From the sequence record MT446422.1: 64,000 bases of DNA; one strand, 5' to 3'. Origin of the DNA: Escherichia virus TH57. The notes beneath the pieces were generated by a model. That model did no database searches. It saw only the letters and a program-made list of their open reading frames with translations, and was not told the origin of the DNA. The stretch's first letter is position 1, and each line of letters begins with the position of its first letter. The position numbers and the translations under genes are program-made. This document shows, in pieces, positions 2,082 through 28,029 of this stretch.

Positions 2082-5000
2082 TTACATTTACCTGTGTAGG
2101 ATTAACCGGGTCTCTTGGATTACCAATATCATCTTTAAGACGTTGGTCAACTAATGCTCTCCAATTTGAGAATGTAACAGCCGACTGGTCAAACAGTGGA
2201 CTATATTTTCCACGACGTTGTGACGGTAACAACCCATAGAACATGGAGAAATCATTCTCGGCATCATAATCGGCTGGTAATGGGAATGGTTGACCAGCAT
2301 TAGGAGCGATGTTATATATTGCTTCACCTGTGATAGGGTTTTTCTCAATAGTACCATCAACACCAATCACTGCAACTCGGTCATTCCATTCTGACGGAAT
2401 ACCAGAAGACCATCTATAGTTACTTAATTTATTAATGATTGTCTCGGTGTGTTTAAGAGTCAAACCAACGTTAACAAACATTGTCAGCAACGTAATACCG
2501 ATGAATCCAAATCCAACCGGGTGAACGAATCGCAAAACATCATTACGATAACGAGAGGTTGGAAGGTTTGACTTAATTGTCATTACGTAATAAGAGCGGT
2601 TACGATTAATATAATCGATGTTGTTGCTCAACAACTCTTTACCACGAACACCTTGCACAATCATCCCCTTGAATGAGGTTCTTTCTGATTTAATTTCTTG
2701 CCCAACAATAAAACGTCCCAGGAGGTTATGAATAGTAATACGCCATCTTAATTTACCGTCTTTATAATCGCGCTCCATATAAGTCACATTACTGCGACCA
2801 GTTGCAGTATAAATGGTTTGGCCTACAATGTCTTCACTGATATTATCAGATTCAACTACGATATCATACTCGGTTCCGTTCTTGGATTCGATGTCAATTT
2901 CAACATCTTCATTATACAGCAATTTGAACAGGAATTTATAAGACGCTTCTGTGCCTTTTGTTGCCCAAAAATCAGACTGTCGGGCCTGGAAGAATCGAAC
3001 AGCTTCGTCACGTTTTTCCTTGGAGAGGTAAATGTTGCGTTTGTACATTTCACTCCAGAGGTATTCCCATGCATCTTCCTCGCGTGGATATTGGTTACGA
3101 ATAAGATTCAACAGGTTGTTATAGTATGTACCAGAACCATCACTGATGAACTGCAAATAATATTCACAGAATTTTTCAAATTTACTATCCTGCAAAAGAT
3201 AGCTATCCGGAACCATCTTCGTTAATAATGGCTGCAGGTCAGGGTCTTTTTCCTTATTCTCATTTTCTGGAGTCCATGGAATATCATGTTCCTGGTTTTG
3301 CAGTTCGGCCATAAGCATAATTTCTTTTGGCTTCCAGATGATACGCACTTCATCGCGCACGCGATAGTCAAACTCAAAATAGCCAATTAATTCCCCAGTA
3401 TTTTTATGAAGCATAATCCCGGAGGCATATTTTTTAAAGCCATTGAATTCGATGTTAGGTGCAGTAATCGTTACTTGACCTTTGTTCCAATATTCATGCA
3501 CGATACGTTCCGGGGAAGTTCCACTAAATGTATCGATGATATACTGGTAAAGAACATCGTTATAGACGACCATTGCTCGGTCTGAAGTCGTAATCCAGCA
3601 ACGAGTATCGTCACGTCTTGACCAGTTAAAGAACGGCTCTGCATAGTAAGTCATACGCCCAGGTTTGAACTCTTCAAAGCCAGAATCTTCGCCAGCTCTG
3701 AAACTCATCATCAGGTAATGCTTATCATGTATCCATTGTTCATCGTAAACGTATTTGACTGCTTCGTTAACTTCATCAGGATATTTAAGAGGAAGTTCAG
3801 TATCAGGCTCAACCGAATATTTGAAGTTGCTGGAGCTAAAGAATACTTCGATGCCATCAGTTGACATGCTTGCATAACCATGTTCGATTCGGCGGCGTTC
3901 TTCTTCTGTATTACCAAAAACTCTCGTCCATGTATCAGTAACAGGGTCTAATTTATAAACACCTTTATCCAGAGAGTCAACAACGTTTTCAGGTTTAGTT
4001 GGGTCTTGTCTTTCTTCTTTAACTTCACCTGTAATTAATGCAAACGTATGGCCTTGAACTGAATCCATTTTATAGCAAACTGCTTTAGGGTTCGCCGTAA
4101 TTGTACTGTAACCAGTTTCAAATAGTTTTTCACCAAAAGTCGGAGACCCTGGGGTTGTATCAATCGGCGCATCAGAGGTTTTTGCTTTATATACACGACC
4201 ACGAGCCGCAACATAAATGAACTCATCCGAAACCGTAATAGCTTCTGCTATTTGCGAAATATATGCCGGAAGTCTTGCATAGTTACCGAAGATTTCAATA
4301 TCAAATCCAAGGTTAATATCCGAACCGACTTTAGCAAATGTAATATCTTCAGAACTGAATCGAACATCATCTGCAGACCATCTTATATCGCTTGATTGGC
4401 GACCATAGAATATACGGTCATACCCCAAAACGTAAGTTGTGGTATCAGTCTGGTAATATACAGTTCTTGATACAGGGTTACCGACCCGCTCGTTAAAGAG
4501 TCTTATGTAATACCAGTTCTGGCCTTTGTCATTGGAGACTTTAACCATCGGCTGGAATCGTTCGAACAAATAAAGAACTCCACCGAGTTCAGCAAGCATC
4601 GTGCGGTTTTGGTCAACACAAACTGCTTGAATCGGTCCCTGGATTTCGTGATATTGGTCTTCTTGTAAAACATAGTTCGAGATTGAAGACAAATGAGAAT
4701 ATGCAGAGGTCCATGTAAAGTCTTCGGTCATCAATGAGGCCATAATAGCATCATTGTTAAAGTTGATATATCTCTGATTGTTATTGGTGAATTTTTCTTC
4801 AATGAATTTATTAGCCAAACTAAATTCGCGCATATGTTCAAAAGTATACGCGTTTGTTGCAAAGGTTTCAAATTCTTCGGTGTATTCCCAATCAGACCGT
4901 TCGAAGCCCATTGCCGCAACAGACACGCGCATCTGATAACTTGTTAACGGACGAATATATTCCTGCTCGAACCATTCATTGTCTGCGGTATAACCAAGGT

Positions 5001-5197: not shown

Positions 5198-7156
5198 TTA
5201 TAATGTAATTGGTTCTAAATTAATAGTCGTATACTGTGGACGAAGGTCATTTTCGAATACGATAAGCGAACCGTCTTTTGTATAGATATTGTCCTGGACT
5301 GGACCTGCATACAATTCGATTGATTGCACTTCAAAACGTTCAGAAGATAAACCAATTGCAGCGATGTCCCAGAAAATATAATCAGACCAATAATCGATTT
5401 CGCCGATTACAAAGTATTGAGTCTGGTCAGCTGGTGCAGCCATCTTATTAAAGTCAGTACCTGTATAAGGTTGAATATTTGTATTAAGCTGAACATCACC
5501 TGGACGGAACGGACCAATGACCATTTTACCATCACCAGATGAGTTGCGGTCAGTCGCTACAATACGGACGTTATATGAGGTAACAGTATCACTTTGGTTA
5601 GTTGGAACAAATTCGAATTCGCTTGATTCCACAGACCTATTAGTATATTGATTATAATATTTAATGCCTGATTCTGGAGTCTTAAAGAAGTTCAAGACTT
5701 CACGAACCATTGTCACCGTTGCAGACGAACCCAAAATACTATGGTCAGTATTATCCACATAAGTGAGCATTTTCGATTTAGCAAAACTGTGGTTAAACAA
5801 TTCAACTTCATCGATATAATAGCGGTCAATCTGGTTAATGATTTGTGCTTGCAACCACTGTTCAGATTCCTGTAATTTATTCAGCGCATAAGACACTTTG
5901 ATATTGTGTTTAAGGAACAAATAATCAGGAGAAATAACTGATGGTGTAATTGTTGATACGTTGAACTCACTAAGGTAGTTTTTGATGTCCTCACGCTGCA
6001 CTGCGGTGAGATACAAGCCCGATTTAGGCTTAACTGATATAAACGCATACCCAGGTTTATTTGCGTCCGTAAACGTCTGTACGGCTTGTACGATTGAGCC
6101 AAATCTTTCTGATACGAAGGTATCATAATCAGTCCCGGTGACAGCACGCATCTGCGCTTCACGTTTAACTACAGCCAGTTCGCGGATTCGTTCAATATCT
6201 TCCGGGTCACCGCCACCATCAGCTCCAACGTAATCTTTATCGTTATTATAGTTTTCGGTAATCTTGTCAACAGTGATATAAGACAAGGAGTCAGCATAGC
6301 TGAAGTCAACTGCACCATTTGCATCAGCCCCTGATGTGCGAAGATATTCGATAACAATTGTTGAATCCTGTACGGGTTTCAGTCCACCAATATAGTTTGC
6401 TTCCAATACGCCACCGGCAACAGATTTGGTCGATTCACCTTCACCGAAGAAGAATTCGGTATTACCATCAACAGTTTCACGCATATAGAAAATAGTGGAC
6501 GTTGAACCAGCATGAACCATTGATTTGTTTGTCCAGTCAGTCCACTCGATGCCGTTCACAAAAAGCTTAACTTCTTTTCGGTCAATATCCGGGTCACGAA
6601 TAAGAATAGGCTGTTTCGGGTCATACAAAAGTTCGGTACGAATAATGCGGCCTTGTGCAAGGGATACAATCGGCAGATATTGGTTATTAATGTCTTTTAC
6701 CGCGATTACATTATCCGTTGTGACAAACATATAAGGGTCAGCTGATGTATCACGAGCATAAGCCAGGAACTTGGTCCCGCGTGGAATTTCAATATTCGAT
6801 GGTTGGAGAGCATGAGAACATGTTAGCATAACCGAAGTCTTTGCGGCCGAACGTGAAGATGGGAGATAACCATTATCCTGTGCAGCCTGAACAACCGAAG
6901 ACCTTAGGTTTGCAGTTCCGATAAATGATTCATAAACTGCTGTATTAGCAAACTGCTGCATATACAATGTATTATATGCAAGCATATCAATCAGGATATT
7001 CATTCGCGAACCTACGAAATCATAATCCTTAAATTCGTCCTGGCTTGATAGCCAGTCTATAATATTCTTTTTAATTTCTTCAAACGTAGCTCCCACAAAT
7101 ACTTTTGGGATAGCGTTAACGGTTCTTGTTAATTGGTAATTCGTAGGAGTAGCCAT
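5198..7156 (-). CDS. 6: baseplate wedge protein gp6
   Basis: ORF track 652 aa (T4 gp6 about 660 aa); synteny. Confidence 0.9.
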   Translation of the reverse strand: MATPTNYQLTRTVNAIPKVFVGATFEEIKKNIIDWLSSQDEFKDYDFVGSRMNILIDMLAYNTLYMQQFANTAVYESFIGTANLRSSVVQAAQDNGYLPSSRSAAKTSVMLTCSHALQPSNIEIPRGTKFLAYARDTSADPYMFVTTDNVIAVKDINNQYLPIVSLAQGRIIRTELLYDPKQPILIRDPDIDRKEVKLFVNGIEWTDWTNKSMVHAGSTSTIFYMRETVDGNTEFFFGEGESTKSVAGGVLEANYIGGLKPVQDSTIVIEYLRTSGADANGAVDFSYADSLSYITVDKITENYNNDKDYVGADGGGDPEDIERIRELAVVKREAQMRAVTGTDYDTFVSERFGSIVQAVQTFTDANKPGYAFISVKPKSGLYLTAVQREDIKNYLSEFNVSTITPSVISPDYLFLKHNIKVSYALNKLQESEQWLQAQIINQIDRYYIDEVELFNHSFAKSKMLTYVDNTDHSILGSSATVTMVREVLNFFKTPESGIKYYNQYTNRSVESSEFEFVPTNQSDTVTSYNVRIVATDRNSSGDGKMVIGPFRPGDVQLNTNIQPYTGTDFNKMAAPADQTQYFVIGEIDYWSDYIFWDIAAIGLSSERFEVQSIELYAGPVQDNIYTKDGSLIVFENDLRPQYTTINLEPITL

Positions 7157-7458: not shown

Positions 7459-7979
7459 TAATCCCTCGCGTATACGTATGAACGCAATTTATCTGCCCAT
7501 CTTGACCAGTTACCGACGATAGTTTTTGTGTAAACTTTTGTCATTGTCTTTCTTACTGGAGCAGGAGGTGGGTCGGTCTCATTACCTGTACGGCTATTAC
7601 TGCCACCAGAGTTCCCTGTGTCTCCACCAGAGCTCTCTTCTTGAAAGTCATAGGTTAGGGTTACCGTGTATGAAAAGACCTTCTGGAGGCTCGCTGGGGC
7701 CCTCCAGAGATACAATTGAGTACTCTTATCTGTAGGAAGGTCTTCCCATGAACCGGCAGTTTTGAATTCATCATTAAGCCGATATTTAAGCGCATCATCT
7801 GCAAATCCGAACACGGATTCATAAACACCGTAAAGATGATTACCCTCAACATTAACGCCAGGGGTGGCCTCATATTCAGTTATATTTATTTCGACTAATG
7901 TTTCGTTTGTTTCTAATTGAGCCGTAAACGTAACATCGATTGAGGCTCCTTCCATGGAGTCTCCTAGGTCAGTGCTCAT
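7458..7979 (-). CDS. conserved hypothetical protein at the T4 gene 5.1 position
   Basis: ORF track 7458..8039; first in-frame ATG outside gp5 is at 7979; an alternative ATG with AGGAG RBS at 7955; start uncertain. Confidence 0.5.
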
Positions 7980-7989
7980 TGGAAGTATA

Positions 7990-9732
7990 TTAGCCAATGT
8001 CAATCCTCGAACCATCAATAGTATATTGACCAGATGCAATTGAACTCATTGTTGACATTGTTTCGGACCAATTGCCAGCCACGGTCATATCAACGTTTCC
8101 ATTAACAGACCATTTGACATTACCATTTACCGTATAATCATGGTTACCTTCGACAAGAGTTTTTGCATCACCTTTAACAGTTATTTCAGCATTACCTTCG
8201 ACAAGAATACTTACATTACCTTTGACGATAATTGTACCATCACCTTCGATAGTTTTGGTTTCATTCCCTCTGATATGAATACTTTCGTTTCCATCGGTCT
8301 GGCGACGAACGTTAGCCATATTGTAATAGGTTTCATCACCGCCAACGTTGACTTTATTATTACCACCAACATAAGTACTCGAATCGCCCTGGGTCATATA
8401 ATAACCATCAGCCACAGTCTTCGAAGTTTTACGGCCATCTGGTGCAACTTCCTCATAGGACCCGGTTGGGTGAATCAGTCGATAACGTTCTTGCCCGGGT
8501 GTATTATCGAATTCCTGAATATGACCGCCTTCAGTTTGCATTGTCTGCACGTAAGGATATTCACCCTTGTAACTTGATTCTGGTTCTTTAAATAGAATCC
8601 TCGTATCTTCTGGAGTCCACGGGTCGGCCGGGTCAGAATTTGTAGGGGCTGCAAAGGTTTGAATCATCCTATAAGAACGGCCATTAAATTCTCTTTCTTT
8701 AGGGGCCATAATACCATATGATTCCATATTACCGGTAAGGATAATCATTGATACCCTTGATGCACGCCCTTTAGTTTGGTTAAACCATACTGAATTGCGA
8801 GCTTCCTCAAATGCCTTCTTATAATCGCCTATTAACATTGCACTAAGCATTCCACGGAATTTAGCCAATCCACCTAATCCCATTTGGAAAGCCATGTTTT
8901 CAAGAGCCATTTGTCTCGAACGGTTTTCTTTATTGTAAACCGGACCTACAACACTATGCTTGCCTATATCGTTTTGGACTTTTTTAAGGTCTTCCTGGAA
9001 TAACTTAGAAGCCTCGTCCATTGATATTGCACCAGGGTTACCTTTAACTTCACGGCCTATTTGATTAGATAATATTTTGTTTATCTGATTCATATCTCTA
9101 ATAGGTTGTGGTGCAATTAAGTGCCCTATACCTATAGTAGGATAACCCTCGGTGTCCCAATATACTTTCAAACGAAGACCTTCATCACGGTGAAGCATAT
9201 TTTCAATTGTGAAATTAGGGTTATCATCTGGTTTAACCTGACTCAAATCAAGACCATCCGGGTTAATACCCAAATCAAGGTTTGCATCTTGTATTACGTT
9301 CGAAGTGGCACCATAACCGACTTCGCCTCCACGGTTAAGCGCAGCAGCATCATTACCTACATAAAGCGGATATTGCCCGGTGGGGTCAGAGAAACCTTCG
9401 TTAGGATTTGCTTTTTGTCTTGAGGCTGAACCATATGTGCCAATGACAAGACCGTTGAGCTTCCACTTGTCTAAAAAGTGACCATACACTTGGGTTCCCG
9501 GGACCATACCAGTCATGGCAGTTTGAATTCCAGAAACCGATGCAGATGATGTTGGCATCAATACTGACATCCAAGGAAGGTCTTCAGTTCTGATACCTTT
9601 TACTGGCCCTTGTGCTTTCTCATATGGATGCATACCCCATACGCGAACACGTACACGACCTTGTTGAAGTGGGTCCATTCGGTCTTCAACAACCCCGACG
9701 AACCAACTTACATTATCTGACATATTAATCAT
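7990..9732 (-). CDS. 5: baseplate hub / cell-puncturing protein gp5 with lysozyme domain
   Basis: 580 aa; internal T4-lysozyme-like segment NMLHRDEGLRLKVYWDTEGYPTIGIGHL; C-terminal beta-helix-like VxGxxxVxV repeats; synteny 53-5. Confidence 0.9.
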   Translation of the reverse strand: MINMSDNVSWFVGVVEDRMDPLQQGRVRVRVWGMHPYEKAQGPVKGIRTEDLPWMSVLMPTSSASVSGIQTAMTGMVPGTQVYGHFLDKWKLNGLVIGTYGSASRQKANPNEGFSDPTGQYPLYVGNDAAALNRGGEVGYGATSNVIQDANLDLGINPDGLDLSQVKPDDNPNFTIENMLHRDEGLRLKVYWDTEGYPTIGIGHLIAPQPIRDMNQINKILSNQIGREVKGNPGAISMDEASKLFQEDLKKVQNDIGKHSVVGPVYNKENRSRQMALENMAFQMGLGGLAKFRGMLSAMLIGDYKKAFEEARNSVWFNQTKGRASRVSMIILTGNMESYGIMAPKEREFNGRSYRMIQTFAAPTNSDPADPWTPEDTRILFKEPESSYKGEYPYVQTMQTEGGHIQEFDNTPGQERYRLIHPTGSYEEVAPDGRKTSKTVADGYYMTQGDSSTYVGGNNKVNVGGDETYYNMANVRRQTDGNESIHIRGNETKTIEGDGTIIVKGNVSILVEGNAEITVKGDAKTLVEGNHDYTVNGNVKWSVNGNVDMTVAGNWSETMSTMSSIASGQYTIDGSRIDIG

Positions 9733-10331
9733 AATGCCTTCTCCATTTCACGGATAAGCGCGGAAATAAATGACTCAATGTCTTCCGGGTCAATTATTTT
9801 TATTTCGCGTTTGTATTCATTTTTACGGATAGCATCTTCATAGATATCCACTGCAGCTAATGGACCTTCATACTGCGGGTATAATTTGTTCTTGTCACCT
9901 TTATCGTACCAAGTGTATGGATTATCAGGATAAGAAACAAGGTTCCAGAACTTCTCGCCGTTTTCATTCACATGATAAAGGACCTGGTTACCACCAACAT
10001 TCGAATATTTCTGAATAGATGCCTGGTAAGATGATTCCTGAGAGCCGAGCCAACCATAATAAGGGTCATAGATATCATTGAGCATAAGGAGAACCCAATA
10101 TAGCTGCGTGTTCCCATAGAGCTGATATGCTAATTCTTCAGGTCTCGGAGCTCCTGCGATGTAATAGGTTTTTGGCGTATAATTAGCAGCGACCTTATCG
10201 AAATAAGCACGGTAGTTTCTGAAGATATCAGTCATTGGAATGCTTAAGACGTCTTCTTTCGTCAATGATGCTGAATTTTTTCTGATTGTTTTTGCATCAT
10301 AATCAATTGGGTTAAAAAATGAAAAAAGCAT
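9729..10331 (-). CDS. 53: baseplate wedge protein gp53
   Basis: ORF track 9729..10361 uses a TTG start; ATG at 10331 is preceded by GGAGG and gives MLFSFFNPIDYDAKT, matching the T4 gp53 N-terminus. Confidence 0.8.
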   Translation of the reverse strand: MLFSFFNPIDYDAKTIRKNSASLTKEDVLSIPMTDIFRNYRAYFDKVAANYTPKTYYIAGAPRPEELAYQLYGNTQLYWVLLMLNDIYDPYYGWLGSQESSYQASIQKYSNVGGNQVLYHVNENGEKFWNLVSYPDNPYTWYDKGDKNKLYPQYEGPLAAVDIYEDAIRKNEYKREIKIIDPEDIESFISALIREMEKAL

Positions 10332-14735: not shown

Positions 14736-15014
14736 ATGAAAACTTATCAAGAATTTATTAACGAATCAATTAGTCACCCGGATATGCTGGAAGACCTGAA
14801 AGGACATCTGATGGTTAAGGCCAAACCGGTTGATGGTGGCGCATTTGAGTTGTTTCTTGTTAAAGGCGAAAACGGTCCTGATAACAAGAAAGTTTCAGCA
14901 ATGATGTTGACTAAAGGTTACAAAGTCAGTTCTTCCTGGAATGCTCCATTCACTTACGCGGTAAGCCCTCGTGAACTGAAAAAAGTTAAAGCTGGACAAT
15001 ATACAAAAATTTAG
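14736..15014 (+). CDS. internal protein (IP) with capsid targeting sequence
   Basis: N-terminus MKTYQEFINES; early promoter cassette upstream. Confidence 0.65.
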   Translation: MKTYQEFINESISHPDMLEDLKGHLMVKAKPVDGGAFELFLVKGENGPDNKKVSAMMLTKGYKVSSSWNAPFTYAVSPRELKKVKAGQYTKI

Positions 15015-15068: not shown

Positions 15069-15302
15069 ATGAAAACTTATCAAGAATTTATTAATGAAAC
15101 TGCTGATGTTAAAGTGCAATTCATTTACACCGGCAAGAAAGATAAAATGGGCGAAATGCCTTATGGAACTCTCCGCGACGCCTTAGATAATTACGGTCAG
15201 CTCGGCGGTGAAGAGTTTGGGGACTATTTTGTTATCCAGGGTCCAGCAGAAGTTATCGAGAAATGGGCTAAACAGTATAAATCAATTTTCCGTAAAAAAT
15301 AA
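15069..15302 (+). CDS. internal protein (IP) with capsid targeting sequence
   Basis: N-terminus MKTYQEFINET; early promoter cassette upstream. Confidence 0.65.
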   Translation: MKTYQEFINETADVKVQFIYTGKKDKMGEMPYGTLRDALDNYGQLGGEEFGDYFVIQGPAEVIEKWAKQYKSIFRKK

Positions 15303-18671: not shown

Positions 18672-18707
18672 AGGGGGTATACAAGCCCCCTGCTTTAAGG
18701 CATAATG
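18672..18707 (+). promoter_or_regulatory. terminator hairpin fused to a type-B early promoter
   Basis: AGGGGG-TATACAAG-CCCCCT hairpin; loop GTATAC lies 18 bp upstream of -10 CATAAT. Confidence 0.45.
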
Positions 18708-19125: not shown

Positions 19126-19719
19126 ATGAATACTTTAAAGAAACTTGTTGAATTCATCCGCTCCAAACTGGGTACTGCAATGGCAAAAAACCTGTCTATT
19201 GAAGACCAATATACTCAAGCGGCGTCTACCCTAATTGACAAGATTACTGAGCTCCAGACTGCCCACGTTAAGTCTGTTAATGAAGAAAAACGCATCCGCG
19301 AGTTAGCGAATGAAAAAGACCAACTCGCCGCTTCAAAAGAGCGTGAAATCCGCAAACTGATTGCTGATGGTGCAGATGTCCAGGTCCATGCTAAACTGGG
19401 TCTCCTGTATCGCCGCACTGCTAAACAACTTCGTAAGAAGGCAGATGATTATGTTGAAATGCGTAATGAAATTAAATTGAAAGTTAAAGAGCTAGATGAC
19501 TCTCGTCAGGAACTAGCTGTTAAACTGGAATACATCCGCGAAACCCGTAAAGTATCTGCCCTAGGTATTGCGACTGCAGATGATGTTGTTGAAATTGCTG
19601 CATTGACTAAGATTGATATTGAAGACACTCTGATGCGTGTTGAAACCTTCAAAGGCCCACAGGTTGGTGTGGATACCACGTCCGCTGACATTGAAGAATA
19701 CATCAATTCACTTAAGTAA
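19126..19719 (+). CDS. coiled-coil protein (weak resemblance to PspA/IM30-type helical proteins)
   Basis: 197 aa, charged and helical-looking; hairpin-embedded promoter upstream. Confidence 0.5.
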
Positions 19720-19762
19720 GATAAAAGGGGGCTTTGCCCCCTAATTGGGAGAGGAGAAAATT

Positions 19763-20317
19763 ATGAGCTTATATACTGACCTTATATCAAATGTAGACTG
19801 GTTTGGCGGTAGTGGCCTTGCTACCGAAACTAATACAGTTCTTTATAGAATCCGTGGCGACTTGGGTTATTCCAATGATTTCTTAAGAAGAACAACAAGT
19901 CGCGGTGATACTACAAAATTGCCTTTTATTTTTGCTTTAGCTGAAGACCTTTCTTTCGCAGATGCCTTGGAAATTATTGATGTAAATCTGGGTATTCAAC
20001 GAGTGGAATTCGCTGGACTACGTTATTCAGTATATGCTTTAAACGAGAGCGATGATTGTATACTTCTTAATATGGCAGATGATGATTACCATTTAGTATG
20101 TTATGTGGCGCTAGAAAATGGTGATGTATTTGGAATGGTTGACCGTCGGCCAGCTTATACTGATATTAAAAATTATGATAAAGCTGAGCTTCTTGATTTG
20201 ACGGCTGAGTACACATTAGAAAGTCATAAACAAAAACGAAAGCTTAATCGTTTTATTGCTGAATGTCGTGAATATGCTAAGGGGGTTCAAAATGCGAACG
20301 TTATATCTGCCAAGTAA
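19763..20317 (+). CDS. hypothetical protein with C-terminal FIxEC motif
   Basis: ORF track 19745 uses TTG; ATG at 19763 after GGAGAGGAG; C-terminus ...LNRFIAECREY. Confidence 0.5.
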   Translation: MSLYTDLISNVDWFGGSGLATETNTVLYRIRGDLGYSNDFLRRTTSRGDTTKLPFIFALAEDLSFADALEIIDVNLGIQRVEFAGLRYSVYALNESDDCILLNMADDDYHLVCYVALENGDVFGMVDRRPAYTDIKNYDKAELLDLTAEYTLESHKQKRKLNRFIAECREYAKGVQNANVISAK

Positions 20318-20651
20318 ACCAGAAAAATTTGTATACGCAGACAAGATTGATAAAGACCTTATGCCTCCATTTGGAGCTTTGTCCATGTGCATCGTTGGGG
20401 TTATAATGATGGTGCTTTGTGGGGATATGGATATCATTAGTGTCGGAGTCGCCTGGGCACTAATAATCGCAGCTCCTTTTATTACCGTCCTGAGCATGAT
20501 ATTGATAAATGTGTGGCATCAAAATCATATGAATAAAGGATATCGTGGTCGAGTTAAAGAGTGGGAACAAAAATGTGTTTCCCTACAAGAAGAGCACAAA
20601 ATTAAATGTGCCGAAGAATTTATTAAGGAGGTTCGTAATGGAACGGCCTAG
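20292..20651 (+). CDS. membrane protein, FIxEC-family C-terminus
   Basis: ATG at 20292 after AGGGGG; hydrophobic helices; C-terminus ...EEFIKEVRNGTA. Confidence 0.5.
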   Translation: MRTLYLPSKPEKFVYADKIDKDLMPPFGALSMCIVGVIMMVLCGDMDIISVGVAWALIIAAPFITVLSMILINVWHQNHMNKGYRGRVKEWEQKCVSLQEEHKIKCAEEFIKEVRNGTA

Positions 20652-20991
20652 TCTTGCCTCACATGTTTATCAATTGGCTGAATATGATATTGGTGGCAAT
20701 TTATTATTAGGGATTGTCACCGCCATGCTTGGTGGTTTGGTTGGTCTGGTAATGACCACGGTTATGGCTGCAATCGAGGGAGTCATGCCTATTGAGATGG
20801 GGTTCTTTATGATAATCGCTCCGGCTGTTGTGGCTTATTTTATCCCTGTTGTGTATGATATCTGTCACACAAACGCCGTGAATGCTCCTAGTCGGAAGAG
20901 ATATGCTTCAGCAATGGCTGAGTATAATAAGTTCCTAGACAAAACAAAACGTAATGACCTTGAAACCTTTATTAAGGAATGTAAATCATGA
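20638..20991 (+). CDS. membrane protein, FIxEC-family C-terminus
   Basis: ATG at 20638 after AGGAGG; hydrophobic helices; C-terminus ...ETFIKECKS. Confidence 0.55.
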   Translation: MERPSLASHVYQLAEYDIGGNLLLGIVTAMLGGLVGLVMTTVMAAIEGVMPIEMGFFMIIAPAVVAYFIPVVYDICHTNAVNAPSRKRYASAMAEYNKFLDKTKRNDLETFIKECKS

Positions 20992-21278
20992 ATAAAATTG
21001 AAATTGCTATCCCCAAGTATTATGATGAGAAATCTGCAGAAAAAGCTATCTATTCTCTTCTAAATAAGACCTCTGAAATTGAAAAACACTGTGAAGAAAT
21101 CGCAGATGAATATGGCATCGAATTCAGCACTGGCGATTACGGCACCGGCCGTACATATCACCCAGTCGGTTATGAATGTTCCGAATGGTTCGCTCACCAT
21201 ATTGAAAACAACGGCGGACAAGTTGAAAACGGCATTGTTACTGTTGGTGCCTGGGTTTCCTCTTCTGAGGTGTGCTAA
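20988..21278 (+). CDS. small protein, member 1 of GxW[VF]xSSxxC-tail paralog array
   Basis: C-terminus GAWVSSSEVC; ATGA overlap with upstream gene. Confidence 0.6.
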   Translation: MNKIEIAIPKYYDEKSAEKAIYSLLNKTSEIEKHCEEIADEYGIEFSTGDYGTGRTYHPVGYECSEWFAHHIENNGGQVENGIVTVGAWVSSSEVC

Positions 21279-21279
21279 T

Positions 21280-21561
21280 ATGATGAATGATTACCGTAAA
21301 AATAAAGAACTGGCTAACGCAGTAAATGATATCCATAAAGCTATTCGTCGTGCCGAGGAAATTGCAGACAAATATGAGACTCATTTTAATATATACCCTG
21401 CTCGCGGTATGGGCGGTGACTATTATTCTCCTGGCGCCTTGAAAGCCGACCTTGCTCATTGGGAAGAACATGGTCATCCTGAATGGGCTATTGTTAATAC
21501 TCATGACTATACAACTGACCTGGAAAATGGTGGTTGGGTGTCCTCTTCTGTTGAATGTTAA
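21280..21561 (+). CDS. small protein, member 2 of GxW[VF]xSSxxC-tail paralog array
   Basis: ORF track 21079..21561; ATG at 21280 just after member 1 stop; C-terminus GGWVSSSVEC; shares EEIADxY segment with member 1. Confidence 0.6.
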   Translation: MMNDYRKNKELANAVNDIHKAIRRAEEIADKYETHFNIYPARGMGGDYYSPGALKADLAHWEEHGHPEWAIVNTHDYTTDLENGGWVSSSVEC

Positions 21562-21570
21562 GGAATTATT

Positions 21571-21768
21571 ATGTCTCGTGAATTAGATTGTGCAATCCGT
21601 ACTGCCGCGGCAGCTATTGAAAACGTTATCCAGATTTGTAAAGAAGAACGTGAAGAAGCCGACATCTATATCGAAGGTGAAAACCATCTGGACCGTCATA
21701 TCACGATTTACAATGGCTGTATTACAATTACGGGTGGCTCCTGGGTGTCCTCCTCTTACGAATGCTAA
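21571..21768 (+). CDS. small protein, member 3 of GxW[VF]xSSxxC-tail paralog array
   Basis: C-terminus GSWVSSSYEC; TAAGGA RBS upstream. Confidence 0.6.
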   Translation: MSRELDCAIRTAAAAIENVIQICKEEREEADIYIEGENHLDRHITIYNGCITITGGSWVSSSYEC

Positions 21769-21777
21769 GGAAATAAA

Positions 21778-22005
21778 ATGACTGCTAAAACTGTTAAAGA
21801 AATTGAAGACCAAATCCGTGCACTAATCTGTGAAGGTGAACAACTGGCCGATAAAACTGGTGAATACTTTCATGTGTATGCTGACAGTCTTCAACGATAT
21901 ATTCCTGCGGGTTGTCCAGAATACGAAGAGTATGACTGGATTCGCGGTGATTATGGTATCCCAGATGGTAAAGGTTTCTGGTTTAACTCCTCTATGTCTT
22001 GCTAA
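21778..22005 (+). CDS. small protein, member 4 of GxW[VF]xSSxxC-tail paralog array
   Basis: C-terminus GFWFNSSMSC; TAAGGA RBS upstream. Confidence 0.55.
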   Translation: MTAKTVKEIEDQIRALICEGEQLADKTGEYFHVYADSLQRYIPAGCPEYEEYDWIRGDYGIPDGKGFWFNSSMSC

Positions 22006-22014
22006 GGTGATAAA

Positions 22015-22248
22015 ATGACTACTGCTGTTGAATATGCTGAATTAGAAAAAGCTGCCCTTGAATTGGCTGCGCTGTATAAGAAAGTAAAAGATATGGCGTC
22101 TGCTCAAGATTTCGGTGTTGAGCTTGATGATTATGACGGCGAAGTCCGTCTTGAAGACTGGTTGAACAGCTCTTGTTATGGTGAAGAAGCGGGCCGTACC
22201 TTCGTTGCTCGTGCCGATGGTAAAATCTGGTACCCGAGCAGCTGCTAA
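22015..22248 (+). CDS. small protein, member 5 (divergent) of the paralog array
   Basis: C-terminus KIWYPSSC plus internal WLNSSCYGEE; TAAGGTGA RBS upstream. Confidence 0.5.
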   Translation: MTTAVEYAELEKAALELAALYKKVKDMASAQDFGVELDDYDGEVRLEDWLNSSCYGEEAGRTFVARADGKIWYPSSC

Positions 22249-22278: not shown

Positions 22279-22608
22279 ATGCACAGAGATTCAGTATTTA
22301 AATATCTTTTAAAAACAGATAAAGAATTTTATATGGATGGACAAGCATTCTTGTTCGTTCGCGGTAAGCGTGAAATGTTTTATAAATGCGACCTCTCCAT
22401 GCATCATCACATGTACCATACCCATGGCGAGTCCATACTAGGGTTCTCTGGTGATGAGACTAAACATATAGCTATGTATTATGACCATTTCAAGCTCAAT
22501 GATTGTGGTGATAATGCTTTGGTCTGGAATCCATCTTGGTGCCGGTGGGATACAATAGACAACAATAAATTATTTTTAGAATATTGCAGAAGTAGTATAC
22601 AACTCTAG
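22279..22608 (+). CDS. hypothetical His/Cys-rich protein
   Basis: ORF track 22264 uses GTG; ATG at 22279 after AGGAGG. Confidence 0.5.
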   Translation: MHRDSVFKYLLKTDKEFYMDGQAFLFVRGKREMFYKCDLSMHHHMYHTHGESILGFSGDETKHIAMYYDHFKLNDCGDNALVWNPSWCRWDTIDNNKLFLEYCRSSIQL

Positions 22609-23064: not shown

Positions 23065-24024
23065 ATGATGTTAGTTATTGGCTCTCGCGCATTGCATAAC
23101 GCCGGTCTGATTGAAAGTAAGAAAATTGAAAACTCTGATTGGGACTTTATAGCAGACCAAGGTTCCTGGAACAACTTTAAAACCCAGATGATGGGGCAGC
23201 ACGTGCATGTGGATAACCCAGATGTTCAAGCTTTTAAATGTATGCACAATGGCAAAGAAACCTATTTTGAAGCATACATCGTCCGGGCACTGACAAGTGT
23301 TCGTGAACTGACTGATGAGTTACAAGAGGAAGATTTTACCTCTAGTTATCGTCTGCTCAAATATGCGAAGGCGAATATTCAGAAAGACCGTCTATCTGGT
23401 TTTTACTGGGCGACTCCTGATATTTGTCTGGCAATTAAACTGTCTCATCGTTACCTGAAGAACAATCCATTCTTCCTGAAGACCATGAGTCATATTAATT
23501 ACCTTCGCAATAAGGGTGTTGTTCTTAATGATGAACTGCAGAAAATTATGCAACAACGCCAGGCAGAAACACTGTCATATAGTCACCCTAAACTAGATGT
23601 GGGCAAGAAAACTTTCTTTAATGATACAATCTATACCCTTGACCATGACTCCATCCACGAGGCTGTGGCGCTTGCTGATAAGCCTGCATATAAGTTCTAT
23701 ATGAAGGATGATTCAGAAGTCATGACCTCGCGTGAAAAATTTGAAGCACTCCCTGAGATTATTAAACTGGCTGGGGTTTATGAAGAAGCATGTGTACTTG
23801 CTCTGGAGCGTTCGCAGGTTCCCAATGAGTTCAATATCTCTCCATCCGTGAGCTTCCATATTGCTCTGGAAAAAGTCTGCACCTCCATTACTTCTGGATG
23901 GTTCCGCGAGTATGCCTGGGAACATTACCAGGAAGTGGTTAATATGTACAACACCCTGGGTCACGAAGACTATGTTAAACGTTTCAAAGCTAACCAGCAT
24001 TTAATTCGCCCTTTCGAAAAATAA
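23065..24024 (+). CDS. hypothetical protein (319 aa)
   Basis: Long ORF with GAGGAAAATATT RBS context; no domain recognised. Confidence 0.6.
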   Translation: MMLVIGSRALHNAGLIESKKIENSDWDFIADQGSWNNFKTQMMGQHVHVDNPDVQAFKCMHNGKETYFEAYIVRALTSVRELTDELQEEDFTSSYRLLKYAKANIQKDRLSGFYWATPDICLAIKLSHRYLKNNPFFLKTMSHINYLRNKGVVLNDELQKIMQQRQAETLSYSHPKLDVGKKTFFNDTIYTLDHDSIHEAVALADKPAYKFYMKDDSEVMTSREKFEALPEIIKLAGVYEEACVLALERSQVPNEFNISPSVSFHIALEKVCTSITSGWFREYAWEHYQEVVNMYNTLGHEDYVKRFKANQHLIRPFEK

Positions 24025-24083: not shown

Positions 24084-24770
24084 ATGAACGGTCCAAAAAC
24101 TTTTAATTCTCAAGCTCATGCAGTAGGCAGTTTCGCTGGTAAAATTTCTAATGATAAAATCAAAAACGAAACTATGTTCTTCAACAGCTCATTGGCTTTC
24201 GCTTTTGACAATGGCGGTCCTATTACTCGTAGCTTTATCATGAGTCTGCCGGATGATTGGAACACTGACCAGGTTGTATTTGATTCTCGGGTTCATATGC
24301 TGATGCCTGGTTGGTATCCCGCTATCCCAGGTTATCACCATGATGATGTACCACGCCCGGATATTCCGGTTGGTCAACACTTTATTACTGCAGGGCAACC
24401 TGATTATGATAATCCTCGTTACCATTCTGAACATATTCTTGGTCTTGTTAACGCTGATGTGTGTCCTACTTATTTTGCAACCGGAACTGCAGAATTCAGT
24501 CAGATTCCTGAAGGCGAACTTATCTATCGCCAGTGGCATAAAGAAGTTCTGGAAAAAATTGAGTCCAATGAATTAACCAAGTGGGATGCTCCTGACCGCA
24601 CGTTGCTCCAGTTTGATTGGCAGACATGGCATACAGGTTCTCGTGCAGTAAGTAACGGTTGGCGCTGGTTTGGTCGTGTGTCTCGTAATACCGACCGTGT
24701 TAAAAAGATTACAAATGAAATCCGCGTTAATGCTCAAGTATATCTGGAATTCCCTATGGAGGGCTGGTAA
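24084..24770 (+). CDS. hypothetical protein (228 aa)
   Basis: Promoter with hairpin-embedded -10 and GAGGAAAATATT RBS upstream; no domain recognised. Confidence 0.6.
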   Translation: MNGPKTFNSQAHAVGSFAGKISNDKIKNETMFFNSSLAFAFDNGGPITRSFIMSLPDDWNTDQVVFDSRVHMLMPGWYPAIPGYHHDDVPRPDIPVGQHFITAGQPDYDNPRYHSEHILGLVNADVCPTYFATGTAEFSQIPEGELIYRQWHKEVLEKIESNELTKWDAPDRTLLQFDWQTWHTGSRAVSNGWRWFGRVSRNTDRVKKITNEIRVNAQVYLEFPMEGW

Positions 24771-25357
24771 TGGCCCTTTATGAACCTGGCTGTATGGGTG
24801 TTGATGTAAACTTCATCCGACGGGCAGAAAATGCAGGTATAATTGTATCAAGAGACGAATTTATGATTACCAAAAAATATTGGGCAAACCTTGATGATGG
24901 TGATGAAGGAATCAAGGTTGAAAACGTTGATTGGTCGCGATGCAATCGTCATGTGAAAGAGCTTTTAATTAAGGAATATAAAATGGGATATATTGTTAAT
25001 GGGTATCAACCGGAACCACTCAAAGAACAGACACCCGACCCATTAATTTCTTATAGCAAGAAATATGGATTTCGTACCTGGAAAGATGAATTTGATAAGT
25101 TAATTTGTTCCAGGTTTTATGTGTGGGCTGGAATCTTATTTTTACCAATCCTGTTGTTTTTCTTGACAGGTAAAAATGAAGCGCCTGTGGCTGTAATGGG
25201 CGCGTGCATTTCTTCTGCTGCTGTTGGACTTATTGCATCATTTTTATGGACTATGGTTATTGAAGTACCTTTTCGTATTTCTAAAGTTAAAAAGGTATAT
25301 GACGATATCACTAAGAAAAATACATTGAACTCTTTTATTGAGGAATGCCGTAAATGA
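24770..25357 (+). CDS. membrane protein, FIxEC-family C-terminus
   Basis: Hydrophobic helices (GILFLPILLFFL..., AAVGLIASFLW); C-terminus ...LNSFIEECRK. Confidence 0.55.
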   Translation: MALYEPGCMGVDVNFIRRAENAGIIVSRDEFMITKKYWANLDDGDEGIKVENVDWSRCNRHVKELLIKEYKMGYIVNGYQPEPLKEQTPDPLISYSKKYGFRTWKDEFDKLICSRFYVWAGILFLPILLFFLTGKNEAPVAVMGACISSAAVGLIASFLWTMVIEVPFRISKVKKVYDDITKKNTLNSFIEECRK

Positions 25358-27081: not shown

Positions 27082-27396
27082 ATGAAAACTTATCAAGAAT
27101 TTATTACTGAATCTACCCAAAAACGTGTTGAAGGCGGTTATGTCTGGATTGAACAATTAACCCCACCAAGTGAAACGAGCACGGGTTCGTGGAAAATTAC
27201 TGTTGATGGCCCTGGTGGAAAACGTAAGACTATTAAAGAAATTAAAGGCTATTATGATGAAGCCAAATCATGGGCTGGTAGTCATGTAATGCAGATTAAA
27301 ATTGCAAACCCGGATAACGTTCATGCGGCAAAAGCATTCCGTCGCATTGGTAATAAACTTTATGATGCGTTTTTGCGTGATTTCCCTAAAGAGTAA
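27082..27396 (+). CDS. internal protein (IP) with capsid targeting sequence
   Basis: ORF track 27043; ATG at 27082 gives MKTYQEFITES; position next to denV as ipII/ipIII in T4. Confidence 0.6.
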   Translation: MKTYQEFITESTQKRVEGGYVWIEQLTPPSETSTGSWKITVDGPGGKRKTIKEIKGYYDEAKSWAGSHVMQIKIANPDNVHAAKAFRRIGNKLYDAFLRDFPKE

Positions 27397-27409: not shown

Positions 27410-27673
27410 ATGAAAACTTATCAAGAATTTATTACTGAATCTGCTAAAGCTCCTACCGGTGCTTTTAAAGTCCGCGCCTTCGCTGGTGATGCTGAAGACT
27501 TTGGCACCATGAAGCGCAATGGTTATTCTTTCTTTGGTGGCGATGGTAAAGAAATTGTTACCTATGCAAAACGCCGCGAAATCGCATTCGTGGTTGCTGG
27601 TAAGAAAGTTGATGTTGACGATATTGAATGGGATTTTGATACCTTTGGTATTGTTTCTGGCGGTAAAGCATAA
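27410..27673 (+). CDS. internal protein (IP) with capsid targeting sequence
   Basis: N-terminus MKTYQEFITESAKA. Confidence 0.65.
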   Translation: MKTYQEFITESAKAPTGAFKVRAFAGDAEDFGTMKRNGYSFFGGDGKEIVTYAKRREIAFVVAGKKVDVDDIEWDFDTFGIVSGGKA

Positions 27674-27729: not shown

Positions 27730-28029
27730 ATGAAAACTTATCAAGAATTTATTACTGAAGCCAAAGCTCCTAAAGCATTTCAAATTGGGGTTCAGGGTAA
27801 TTTAGACCAACAATACGTTGATGCTATTGTAGCAAGCCTCGGCAAGCAGGGTGTACAAGTGGATTTGGTTGATTTTACTAAAGGTAATACTTTTAATATT
27901 GTCACATCTAAAGGTTCTTTAGCTAAAGTTAAAAAGGCCTTTGGCGTAGCACAAGCATATGAAATCGACCATTCCGAATTGGAAAATAAAGGTCGCCAGA
28001 ACACAATTAAAGGCTCTGGTTCTTTCTAA
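27730..28029 (+). CDS. internal protein (IP) with capsid targeting sequence
   Basis: N-terminus MKTYQEFITEAKA; promoter cassette upstream. Confidence 0.65.
   Translation: MKTYQEFITEAKAPKAFQIGVQGNLDQQYVDAIVASLGKQGVQVDLVDFTKGNTFNIVTSKGSLAKVKKAFGVAQAYEIDHSELENKGRQNTIKGSGSF

Follow-up and report, generated by a model that had tools for sequence, protein, structure and literature searches.

Background

In Enterobacteria, the gene of PspA adjoins genes of the small inner-membrane proteins PspB and PspC. PspC has a cytoplasmic domain at its C-terminus that binds PspA, and PspA exchanges its soluble partner PspF for partners in the membrane (PMC5596341, PMC9239133). In Bacillus, the PspA homologue LiaH is recruited by LiaI, its anchor in the membrane (PMC9239133). 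Here we describe a comparable arrangement in a bacteriophage. A stretch of 64,000 nucleotides (nt) from Escherichia virus TH57 (sequence record MT446422.1; the whole stretch is called the window below) contains four genes, A to D, whose products share one motif at or near the C-terminus. They lie downstream of a homologue of phage T4 gene e.6, which profile comparison places in the PspA/Vipp1 family. The likeness to PspA-PspB/PspC and LiaH-LiaI is one of gene arrangement, a PspA-family gene (here e.6) standing next to genes of small inner-membrane proteins (in the window, predicted ones). The window set differs in being phage-encoded, in having many paralogous carriers, soluble ones included, and in being united by a motif of 10 residues and not by a domain; A-D show no sequence match to PspB, PspC or LiaI (Pfam at E <= 0.1; NCBIfam).

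The direct homologues of the four genes are T4 e.5, e.4, e.3 and e.2, which have the same position and the same tail motif (T4 e.2 being truncated). Genes e.2-e.5 are known only as hypothetical open reading frames (ORFs), and we found no account of them, or of a shared tail motif, in the literature. Sequence searches of Pfam, NCBIfam and the PDB gave no meaningful match for A-D or for T4 e.2-e.5; in newer Pfam, e.4 (PF26873) and e.2 (PF26896) each have an entry of their own, and PHROGs splits the motif carriers into at least 10 families. In T4, early RNA and protein products were detected for all genes from e.2 to e.6, the proteins of e.4 and e.5 being early, that of e.2 middle and that of e.3 late (PMC9697503, supplementary files 4 and 6). 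Early transcripts together with detected proteins fit a role in infection rather than the timing of lysis.

Three further groups of proteins invite comparison. Class II holins and pinholins are likewise small, with two transmembrane (TM) helices, both ends predicted in the cytoplasm, a charged tail and a gene near that of endolysin e. They differ in that the T4 homologues of our genes are transcribed early and that several paralogues, as well as soluble carriers, share the tail; no holin family in Pfam or PHROG matches A-D. T4-type phages use holin t. The superinfection-exclusion proteins Imm and Sp of T4 resemble the membrane carriers in being small, early and membrane-bound and in coming from parts of T4-type genomes that are dispensable, but A-D have no sequence relationship to them (Pfam, E <= 0.1), and we know of no shared terminal motif in Imm and Sp. 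A preliminary description of the locus had pointed to superinfection-exclusion and lysis-regulation proteins; nothing links the family to either, as there is no Pfam match and the T4 transcripts are early. Finally, FtsZ and SSB bind partners through a short conserved peptide at their end, carried by a flexible or charged linker, and the pattern hydrophobic-x-x-F-aliphatic-basic seen here resembles the FtsZ peptide DIPAFLRK. The conserved C-R is absent there, and the likeness is one of resemblance alone.

Four proteins with a common C-terminal motif

Genes A to D all lie on the plus strand. Gene A (19763-20317) encodes a soluble protein of 184 amino acids (aa) at the position of e.5, with LNRFIAECR at residues 161-169, 15 residues before the stop (motif FIAECR, 20252-20269); its tail reads LNRFIAECREYAKGVQNANVISAK. 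Gene B (20292-20651), the homologue of T4 e.4, encodes 119 aa with predicted TM helices at about 20370-20432 and 20442-20513 and a basic tail, AEEFIKEVRNGTA, that ends in FIKEVRNGTA (motif FIKEVR, 20619-20636). Gene C (20638-20991), of the e.3 family, encodes 117 aa; its TM helices are predicted at about 20695-20772 and 20794-20859 and its tail ends in LETFIKECKS (motif FIKECK, 20968-20985). Gene D (24770-25357), the e.2 homologue, encodes 195 aa and starts with a conserved soluble domain, followed by TM helices at about 25106-25168 and 25190-25267 and by a tail ending in LNSFIEECRK (motif FIEECR, 25334-25351).

The preliminary description had placed three proteins with such tails in 19763-20991 and a fourth at 24770-25357, and we find all four ORFs and their motifs there. 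It let A end at ...CREY, whereas A continues for another 13 residues (AKGVQNANVISAK), since the end of its gene lies over the start of B. Its statement that three of the four contain hydrophobic helices agrees with our analysis: B, C and D have two each, separated by a loop of 3-7 residues and followed by a charged basic tail of 27-38 residues, and A has none. The overlaps it described are also present, 26 nt between A and B and 14 nt between B and C, and are compatible with translational coupling; C and D each overlap their next gene by ATGA. The first three carriers do stand directly before an array of small ORFs with a GxWxSSxxC ending, which starts at 20988.

The common tail is beyond chance in the window. 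A six-frame scan of all 64 kb finds F[IV]x[ED]C at 7 places, and inside long ORFs only in A, C and D, each time at most 16 residues from the stop. When the 256 ORFs of the window were scored with a position matrix trained only on other phages, A-D ranked at the top with 17.9-22.0 bits; the runners-up reached 13.0 bits (a shadow ORF of 51 aa) and 7.9 bits. A soluble protein of 109 aa encoded at 22279-22608 ends in …KLFLEYCRSSIQL (…DNNKLFLEYCRSSIQL), with L at position +1 and nothing hydrophobic at -3. This end may represent a fifth tail that has degenerated; the motif matrix gave it no score.

The identity of the genes follows from homology and position. The region 19000-26000 matches SP18-like Gaprivervirus phages (megablast, 92-94% identity over the full query span), and by this comparison the window phage is an SP18-like T4-type phage. 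The annotated order in SP18 is e.6, a JS98_gp131-like gene, e.4, a JS98_gp130-like gene, small ORFs, e.2, a small ORF, nudE, e and denV; that of T4, in the same orientation, is e.6, e.5, e.4, e.3, e.2, nudE and e. The order of the window (e.6, A, B, C, further genes, D, a small ORF, nudE, e, denV) agrees with SP18, RB69 and T4, with extra genes between the e.3 and e.2 counterparts in comparison with T4. Start codons in the window were picked by Shine-Dalgarno (SD) sites and agree with the SP18 annotation. Gene B matches phrog_2604 (E 5e-45), C phrog_2330 (E 7e-46) and D phrog_2203 (E 5e-67), the families of T4 e.4, e.3 and e.2, respectively. Gene A matches phrog_8788 and, weakly (E 0.005), the T4 e.5 family phrog_2607, which makes it a positional and, by profile, a remote homologue of e.5. 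Homology, together with a location on the early strand between e.6 and nudE/e, thus makes A, B, C and D the counterparts of T4 e.5, e.4, e.3 and e.2.

Several database names in this region deserve a remark. The name "sulfurtransferase" on e.4 homologues in several NCBI records is rejected here, as no NCBIfam model backs it, and is probably a propagated mis-annotation. One GenBank record calls an e.2 homologue "holin", for which we found no support, and the automated record of phage EAWsc9 carries implausible names across the region (virB3, MotA-ExbB, transposase, holin).

The motif in other phages

We examined the neighbourhoods of e.6 in 17 phages from different genera and collected about 45 motif carriers. 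Besides T4, at least 15 further genera from two phage families have the motif; it was seen in T4, RB69, JS10, Pseudotevenvirus and phages of Klebsiella, Enterobacter, Serratia, Providencia and Aeromonas. Per genome, Tevenvirinae have 3-6 carriers, as does the Providencia phage; in the region examined, Aeromonas phages and Pseudotevenvirus have only one or two. Searches with single sequences returned close relatives only, and a superfamily profile found 117 proteins, nearly all from T4-like phages, with none recognised outside T4-type phages.

The consensus can be written as [ILV]-[ED]-x-F-[IV]-x-x-C-R-[KR]. Among 38 non-redundant members aligned on F (position 0), I/V at position +1 is found in all 38. 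F itself is present in 33/38 (Y in 3, W in 2), R at +5 in 33/38 with basic residues after it, and I, L, V, A or F at -3 in 33/38. The Cys at +4 occurs in 30/38 and is otherwise V, I, M or S. Less constant are E/D at -2 (21/38), K at +2 (19/38) and E at +3 (16/38). The "FIxEC" of the preliminary description therefore stands as a real common tail, except for its E, which is not conserved outside E. coli phages. Cysteine chemistry (a metal site, a disulfide or a rhodanese-like C-R-x-G) is unlikely, as the position is V/I/M/S in the e.4 and "FGTYWG" subfamilies, and the A found there in Ackermannviridae disfavours it as well.

In T4 the tails read KFVKECREY (e.5), KFVKESRCK (e.4; KFVKESRCKSQS) and EFVIDCRKIK (e.3). 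T4 e.2 (102 aa; T4 locus 2153-2461, minus strand) is truncated and has neither a second TM helix nor the motif at its end; in the other T4-type genera examined, e.2 has 162-197 aa. Among 22 e.2 orthologues FI[EK]ECRK is invariant, with the membrane hairpin diverged almost completely. The last 12 residues of the C family are fixed among orthologues of 47-96% identity, and in the e.4 family no column is invariant except those of F, K and R in the motif. Loss of the motif in orthologues from related phages would have spoken against a shared tail; it is kept in T4 e.5, e.4 and e.3 and throughout the e.2 orthologues. The gene after e.6 in Pseudotevenvirus carries [IM]EKFIHSCKK. In Ackermannviridae a variant, I[ED]SII[RK]xAR or VESIVDRAR, is found on two genes after the e.6 homologue: in UPM 2146 these carry PIESIIRRARGK... 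and DIDSIIKQARSRTRQ, in Se-S VESIVDRARTR... and VLQIVDKARKRRSK.

Tails within one genome tend to resemble each other. Motif likeness across paralogue subfamilies is 0.582 within and 0.515 between genomes (permutation p <= 0.0002), and lineage variants are evident: the three T4 tails all have V and the four window tails all have I, with Y for the Providencia phage and W for phages of Klebsiella. Such likeness fits co-evolution with a common partner, mutual binding of the tails, or gene conversion.

The tail also recalls MKTYQEFI[AT]E, the sequence that targets internal proteins of T4 to the capsid, and the site of the gp21 prohead protease, whose cleavage rule is [IL]-x-E. Internal-protein genes of the window start with MKTYQEFITE or MKTYQEFINE and all four window tails read FIxE, which is what mimicry of such a signal would look like. 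The capsid-targeting sequence is, however, N-terminal and without the conserved C-R, and its E is invariant in all internal-protein starts that we collected; the tail has E at +3 in only 16/38 members, even though the capsid-targeting E is kept in the loci from which internal-protein genes were retrieved. Membrane proteins are moreover unlikely capsid cargo. With the wrong terminus and a non-conserved E, mimicry is rejected as a general explanation, and we regard it as the most improbable of those considered here.

Profile evidence relates e.6 to PspA and Vipp1

The gene directly upstream of A (19126-19719, plus strand) encodes a protein of 197 aa that is 75% identical to T4 e.6. A profile built from 16 e.6 proteins matches eight distinct Vipp1/PspA sequences in the PDB (E 8.5e-6 to 4e-4), in alignments that begin at residue 1 and span residues 1-140. 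After the most divergent members were left out, the profile of Straboviridae proteins still has Vipp1 chains as its top four matches (E 0.005-0.03). Two e.6 homologues from Ackermannviridae exceed the gathering score of Pfam PspA_IM30 (35.5 and 34.0 versus 33.9 bits), and two from Pseudotevenvirus match this family below the threshold. The Straboviridae profile aligns with the Ackermannviridae protein over the full length (hhalign 98.8%, E 6e-17). On these comparisons e.6 is a divergent homologue of PspA/Vipp1/IM30 and belongs to the ESCRT-III superfamily. Because the single protein has no match to PF04012, e.6 has gone unannotated in T4 and its relatives. We found no phage PspA described in the literature; term searches of two phyletic surveys of Psp proteins and of a 2025 review of bacterial ESCRT-III revealed no discussion of phage-encoded homologues in the parts that these terms reach.

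We also asked where the motif lies relative to e.6, in 40 IMG/VR loci found through an alignment of 12 e.6 sequences, counting the strict motif [FYW][IV]xxC[RK] in the last 35 residues. Within 4 kb downstream of e.6, 94 of 354 ORFs carried it, against none of 337 upstream (Fisher p = 8e-31, a value that overstates independence, since e.6 loci share ancestry and the adjacency is partly inherited synteny). In 36 of the 40 loci the very first ORF downstream carries it. The arrangement is kept across phage families in which the identity of e.6 drops to 22-33%. The motif is thus confined to genes downstream of e.6, in Straboviridae as well as in Ackermannviridae.

Protein-level selection and dual coding

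The codons of the motif speak for selection on the protein. Cys is encoded by TGT in 17 and by TGC in 15 family members, Arg by CGT/CGA/CGC/CGG in 17 and by AGA/AGG in 17, and both TTT and TTC are used for Phe. Because codons at the conserved positions vary freely, selection acts on the amino acids, and the tail is, on codon evidence, a selected protein-level feature.

At the same time, the tail overlaps the initiation region of the next gene, whose start usually overlaps the stop in an ATGA or is at most about 30 nt away. In proteins that end in C-R-K-stop, codons +2/+3 read AAGGAA, AAGGAG, AGGAGC, GAGGAA or AAAGGA and thereby place an SD site 6-8 nt before the ATG. In longer tails +2/+3 are variable and the SD has moved to R-G (CGAGGT). 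Three of the window tails show this double use: the K-E-V codons of the B motif (AAGGAGG, 20625-20631) are the SD of gene C, the K-E codons of the C motif (AAGGAA, 20974-20979) that of the next gene, which starts at 20988, and the E-E codons of the D motif (GAGGAA, 25340-25345) that of the gene starting at 25354. The SD of B (AAGGGGG, 20279-20285) lies downstream of the A motif, which itself is not an SD. The "K-E" of the window tails appears because two variable codons of the motif often encode the SD of the next gene. The E at +3 is thus largely a by-product of dual coding, and what is conserved is the hydrophobic residue at -3, F, I/V, C and R. Motif residues that double as a ribosome-binding site are a warning against the assumption that each conserved residue is functional in the protein.

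One could go further and suppose that conservation acts mainly on nucleotides, either as a ribosome-binding site and start overlap for translational coupling or as a recombination junction for the shuffling of genes. The ATGA overlaps and the SD sites at codons +2/+3 of proteins ending in C-R-K-stop would be expected then. This supposition covers the x-x positions only, the "E" included; F, I/V, C and R do not fall within the SD and persist despite synonymous and six-fold changes of their codons, and the A motif is not the SD of B. We therefore consider it very improbable.

Architecture and predicted topology of the carriers

The motif behaves as a module. Families C and e.4 are homologous over their full length (hhalign 97%, E 9e-11, 112 columns), whereas C and D align in profile comparison only in their last 19 columns (E 2e-5) and A and C in only 10 columns. 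By these alignments B and C are full-length paralogues, and A and D share the tail alone. The carriers further include small soluble proteins in HMGUkp2 (6272-6559), Entb_45 (9848-10147) and Roth34 (9886-10194), and a divergent e.5-like soluble protein after e.6 carries the motif in every lineage examined except Karamvirus UFV01. Because soluble and membrane bodies differ and only the tail aligns, we interpret the motif as a module attached to different protein bodies. The preliminary description saw a conserved tail on diverse membrane anchors. The tail itself bears this out, with its 19 (C-D) and 10 (A-C) alignable columns; the diversity of anchors holds less well, as B and C are paralogues and the e.5-like carriers are soluble.

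A highly charged linker of about 13-44 residues connects the last TM helix with the motif, so that we found no spacer of fixed length between membrane and motif. The last TM helix ends a median of 38 residues before the C-terminus, and the motif 0 to about 30 residues before the stop. Short hairpin loops of 3-7 residues and basic tails suggest, on charge only, that the tail is probably cytoplasmic. AlphaFold2 predicts for D (pLDDT 61) that the second TM helix and the tail form one helix (139-194), and for A it places the motif in a helix comprising residues 153-182, with pLDDT of about 76-83 over residues 141-170. In these models the motif would be a short amphipathic helix with the hydrophobic residues at -3, 0, +1 and +4 on one face. 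A Foldseek comparison of the A model with PDB and BFVD returned nothing significant beyond a close orthologue.

These distances are relevant to another proposal, that the tail is a nascent-chain arrest peptide which, in the manner of SecM, MifM and VemP, senses insertion of the hairpin and tunes the overlapping downstream gene. A conserved end of membrane-inserted proteins that lies over the initiation region of the next gene would suit such a device, and so would the median of 38 residues from the last TM end to the C-terminus, as insertion force acts on arrest peptides in about this range. The distances vary too widely for it, from 0 to about 30 residues between motif and stop and from 13 to 44 between TM helix and motif. 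Soluble carriers have the tail as well, the carriers have conserved domains of their own, and there is no arrest signature of the Pro/Gly type. We consider this explanation very improbable.

Alternatively, the tails might associate with each other, for example as a coiled-coil bundle of homo- or hetero-oligomers under the membrane, and owe their likeness to tandem duplication, with no separate partner. The heptad-like spacing of hydrophobic residues (-3, 0, +1, +4), the full-length paralogy of B and C and the tandem arrays of up to 5-6 copies would all agree with this, and co-variation within genomes is also expected from mutual binding or gene conversion. The motif is, though, short, about two helical turns following a highly charged linker, soluble carriers whose N-terminal domains are unrelated retain it as well, and in the region examined just one or two carriers occur in Aeromonas phages and in Pseudotevenvirus. 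Self-association seems to us unlikely, if still worth keeping in mind.

Possible role of the shared tail

The preliminary description took the conserved tail as a hint at a common interaction partner, a reading that our results support in part. By analogy with the PspA systems, we suggest that the tail is a docking helix through which all carriers bind one shared partner, most likely e.6. We hold this proposal tentatively, with slightly less than even confidence. Gene e.6 is the best candidate because a PspA homologue is followed here by hairpin membrane proteins and a soluble protein that all have the same tail. The two-helix hairpin would put both ends of the membrane carriers into the cytoplasm, and the variable charged linker would present the motif at or near the C-terminus. 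The membrane carriers, as anchors or sensors, would then recruit or regulate e.6, a presumed membrane-remodelling protein, at the inner membrane, and the soluble e.5-like protein would be a cytoplasmic partner that competes for the same site on e.6. The purpose might be to keep the inner membrane intact during infection. With the host shut-off caused by T4, the host is presumed unable to induce its own Psp response.

A number of observations weigh against docking on e.6. No sequence similarity connects B, C and D with PspC, PspB or LiaI (no Pfam match at E <= 0.1). The e.6 protein of the window alone does not match PF04012 in Pfam, and its link to PspA comes through the family profile and transitive homology. 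The structural models of A and D are of low confidence overall (pLDDT 61-62), and the shared ancestry of the e.6 loci reduces the weight of the adjacency. Pseudotevenvirus has e.6 and an e.5-like motif protein with no membrane members nearby. In the Enterobacter phage UFV01 (Karamvirus) the gene at the e.5 position (7657-8124) is truncated to 155 aa and lacks the motif; five other motif carriers are found further downstream. Finally, e.6 is 75% conserved between T4 and the window, yet details of the motif differ (V in T4, I in the window), a combination that suits a host protein or a paralogue as the partner equally well.

A host partner, perhaps a membrane-associated or division protein, is a rival proposal. 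All evidence for a selected, modular, cytoplasmic terminal helix applies to it equally, and motif variants track the genus of the host (Y in the Providencia/Morganella phage, W in Klebsiella phages). The C-terminal peptide of FtsZ, D-I-P-A-F-L-R-K, binds FtsA and ZipA, and the motif resembles it loosely; the conserved C-R has no known counterpart in that peptide. A host partner also leaves unexplained why the carriers are confined downstream of e.6 in two phage families. We judge it to be rather improbable, and docking on e.6 remains the reading that we prefer.

If the carriers do dock on e.6, a wider and more doubtful suggestion can be made, namely that T4-type phages (T4 with its e.6-e.2 included) and Ackermannviridae carry a Psp-like membrane-stress module of their own. 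We think of this as a possibility that is clearly weaker than docking itself. Such a module would consist of e.6, of rapidly diversifying anchors or sensors and of one soluble regulator, all addressed to e.6 by the C-terminal helix of 10 residues. Its task would be to maintain a sealed and energised inner membrane in the infected cell, and it might counter abortive-infection effectors that attack the membrane. It would be a phage-borne variation on the theme of PspA and its membrane partners, by analogy rather than by membership.

In T4, the best-studied lytic phage, the conserved genes e.2-e.6 are expressed early. A single terminal motif unites at least 10 separately catalogued families beside a previously unannotated PspA/Vipp1 homologue. 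Through it, genes listed as "hypothetical proteins" may become open to experiment as one system, a phage membrane-maintenance module with interchangeable, motif-tagged partners. If our assumptions are true, the field of ESCRT-III and PspA extends to bacteriophages, and the tail is a sequence tag by which more partners could be found.

Neighbouring genes and other observations

The array that follows gene C (20988-22248) consists of five tandem small ORFs ending in GAWVSSSEVC, GGWVSSSVEC, GSWVSSSYEC, GFWFNSSMSC and IWYPSSC (G.W.SS..C); the fifth has an internal DWLNSSC in addition. No match to these ORFs was found in Pfam or NCBIfam. Similar ORFs are present in the JS10-like and HMGUkp2 loci, and RB69 and Entb_45 have ORFs at corresponding positions. 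In HMGUkp2 a small motif-bearing protein lies inside the array.

A scan for terminator-like structures found a G+C-rich hairpin between e.6 and A (AGGGGGC aaa GCCCCCT, minus-strand sequence, 19726-19742). A second one (GGGGGC-loop-GCCCCC, 18672-18691) lies in the gap after the gene that precedes e.6. Both look like terminators on the minus strand.

Five small genes of the window have the internal-protein leader MKTYQEFITE or MKTYQEFINE (14736-15014, 15069-15302, 27082-27396, 27410-27673 and 27730-28029). The leader and the tails have the string EFIxE in common.

Two larger genes lie between the array and D. The one at 24084-24770 encodes a conserved protein of 228 aa (phrog_1843) and overlaps the start of D by 1 base (TAATG); it is absent from this position in T4. 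Its product, which has H..D and H-rich stretches, is named "phytanoyl-CoA dioxygenase" in one GenBank record. The other (23065-24024) encodes 319 aa with the Pfam domains DUF7277 (E 3e-27) and DUF7275 (E 3e-76) and is called "nucleotidyltransferase" in one record.

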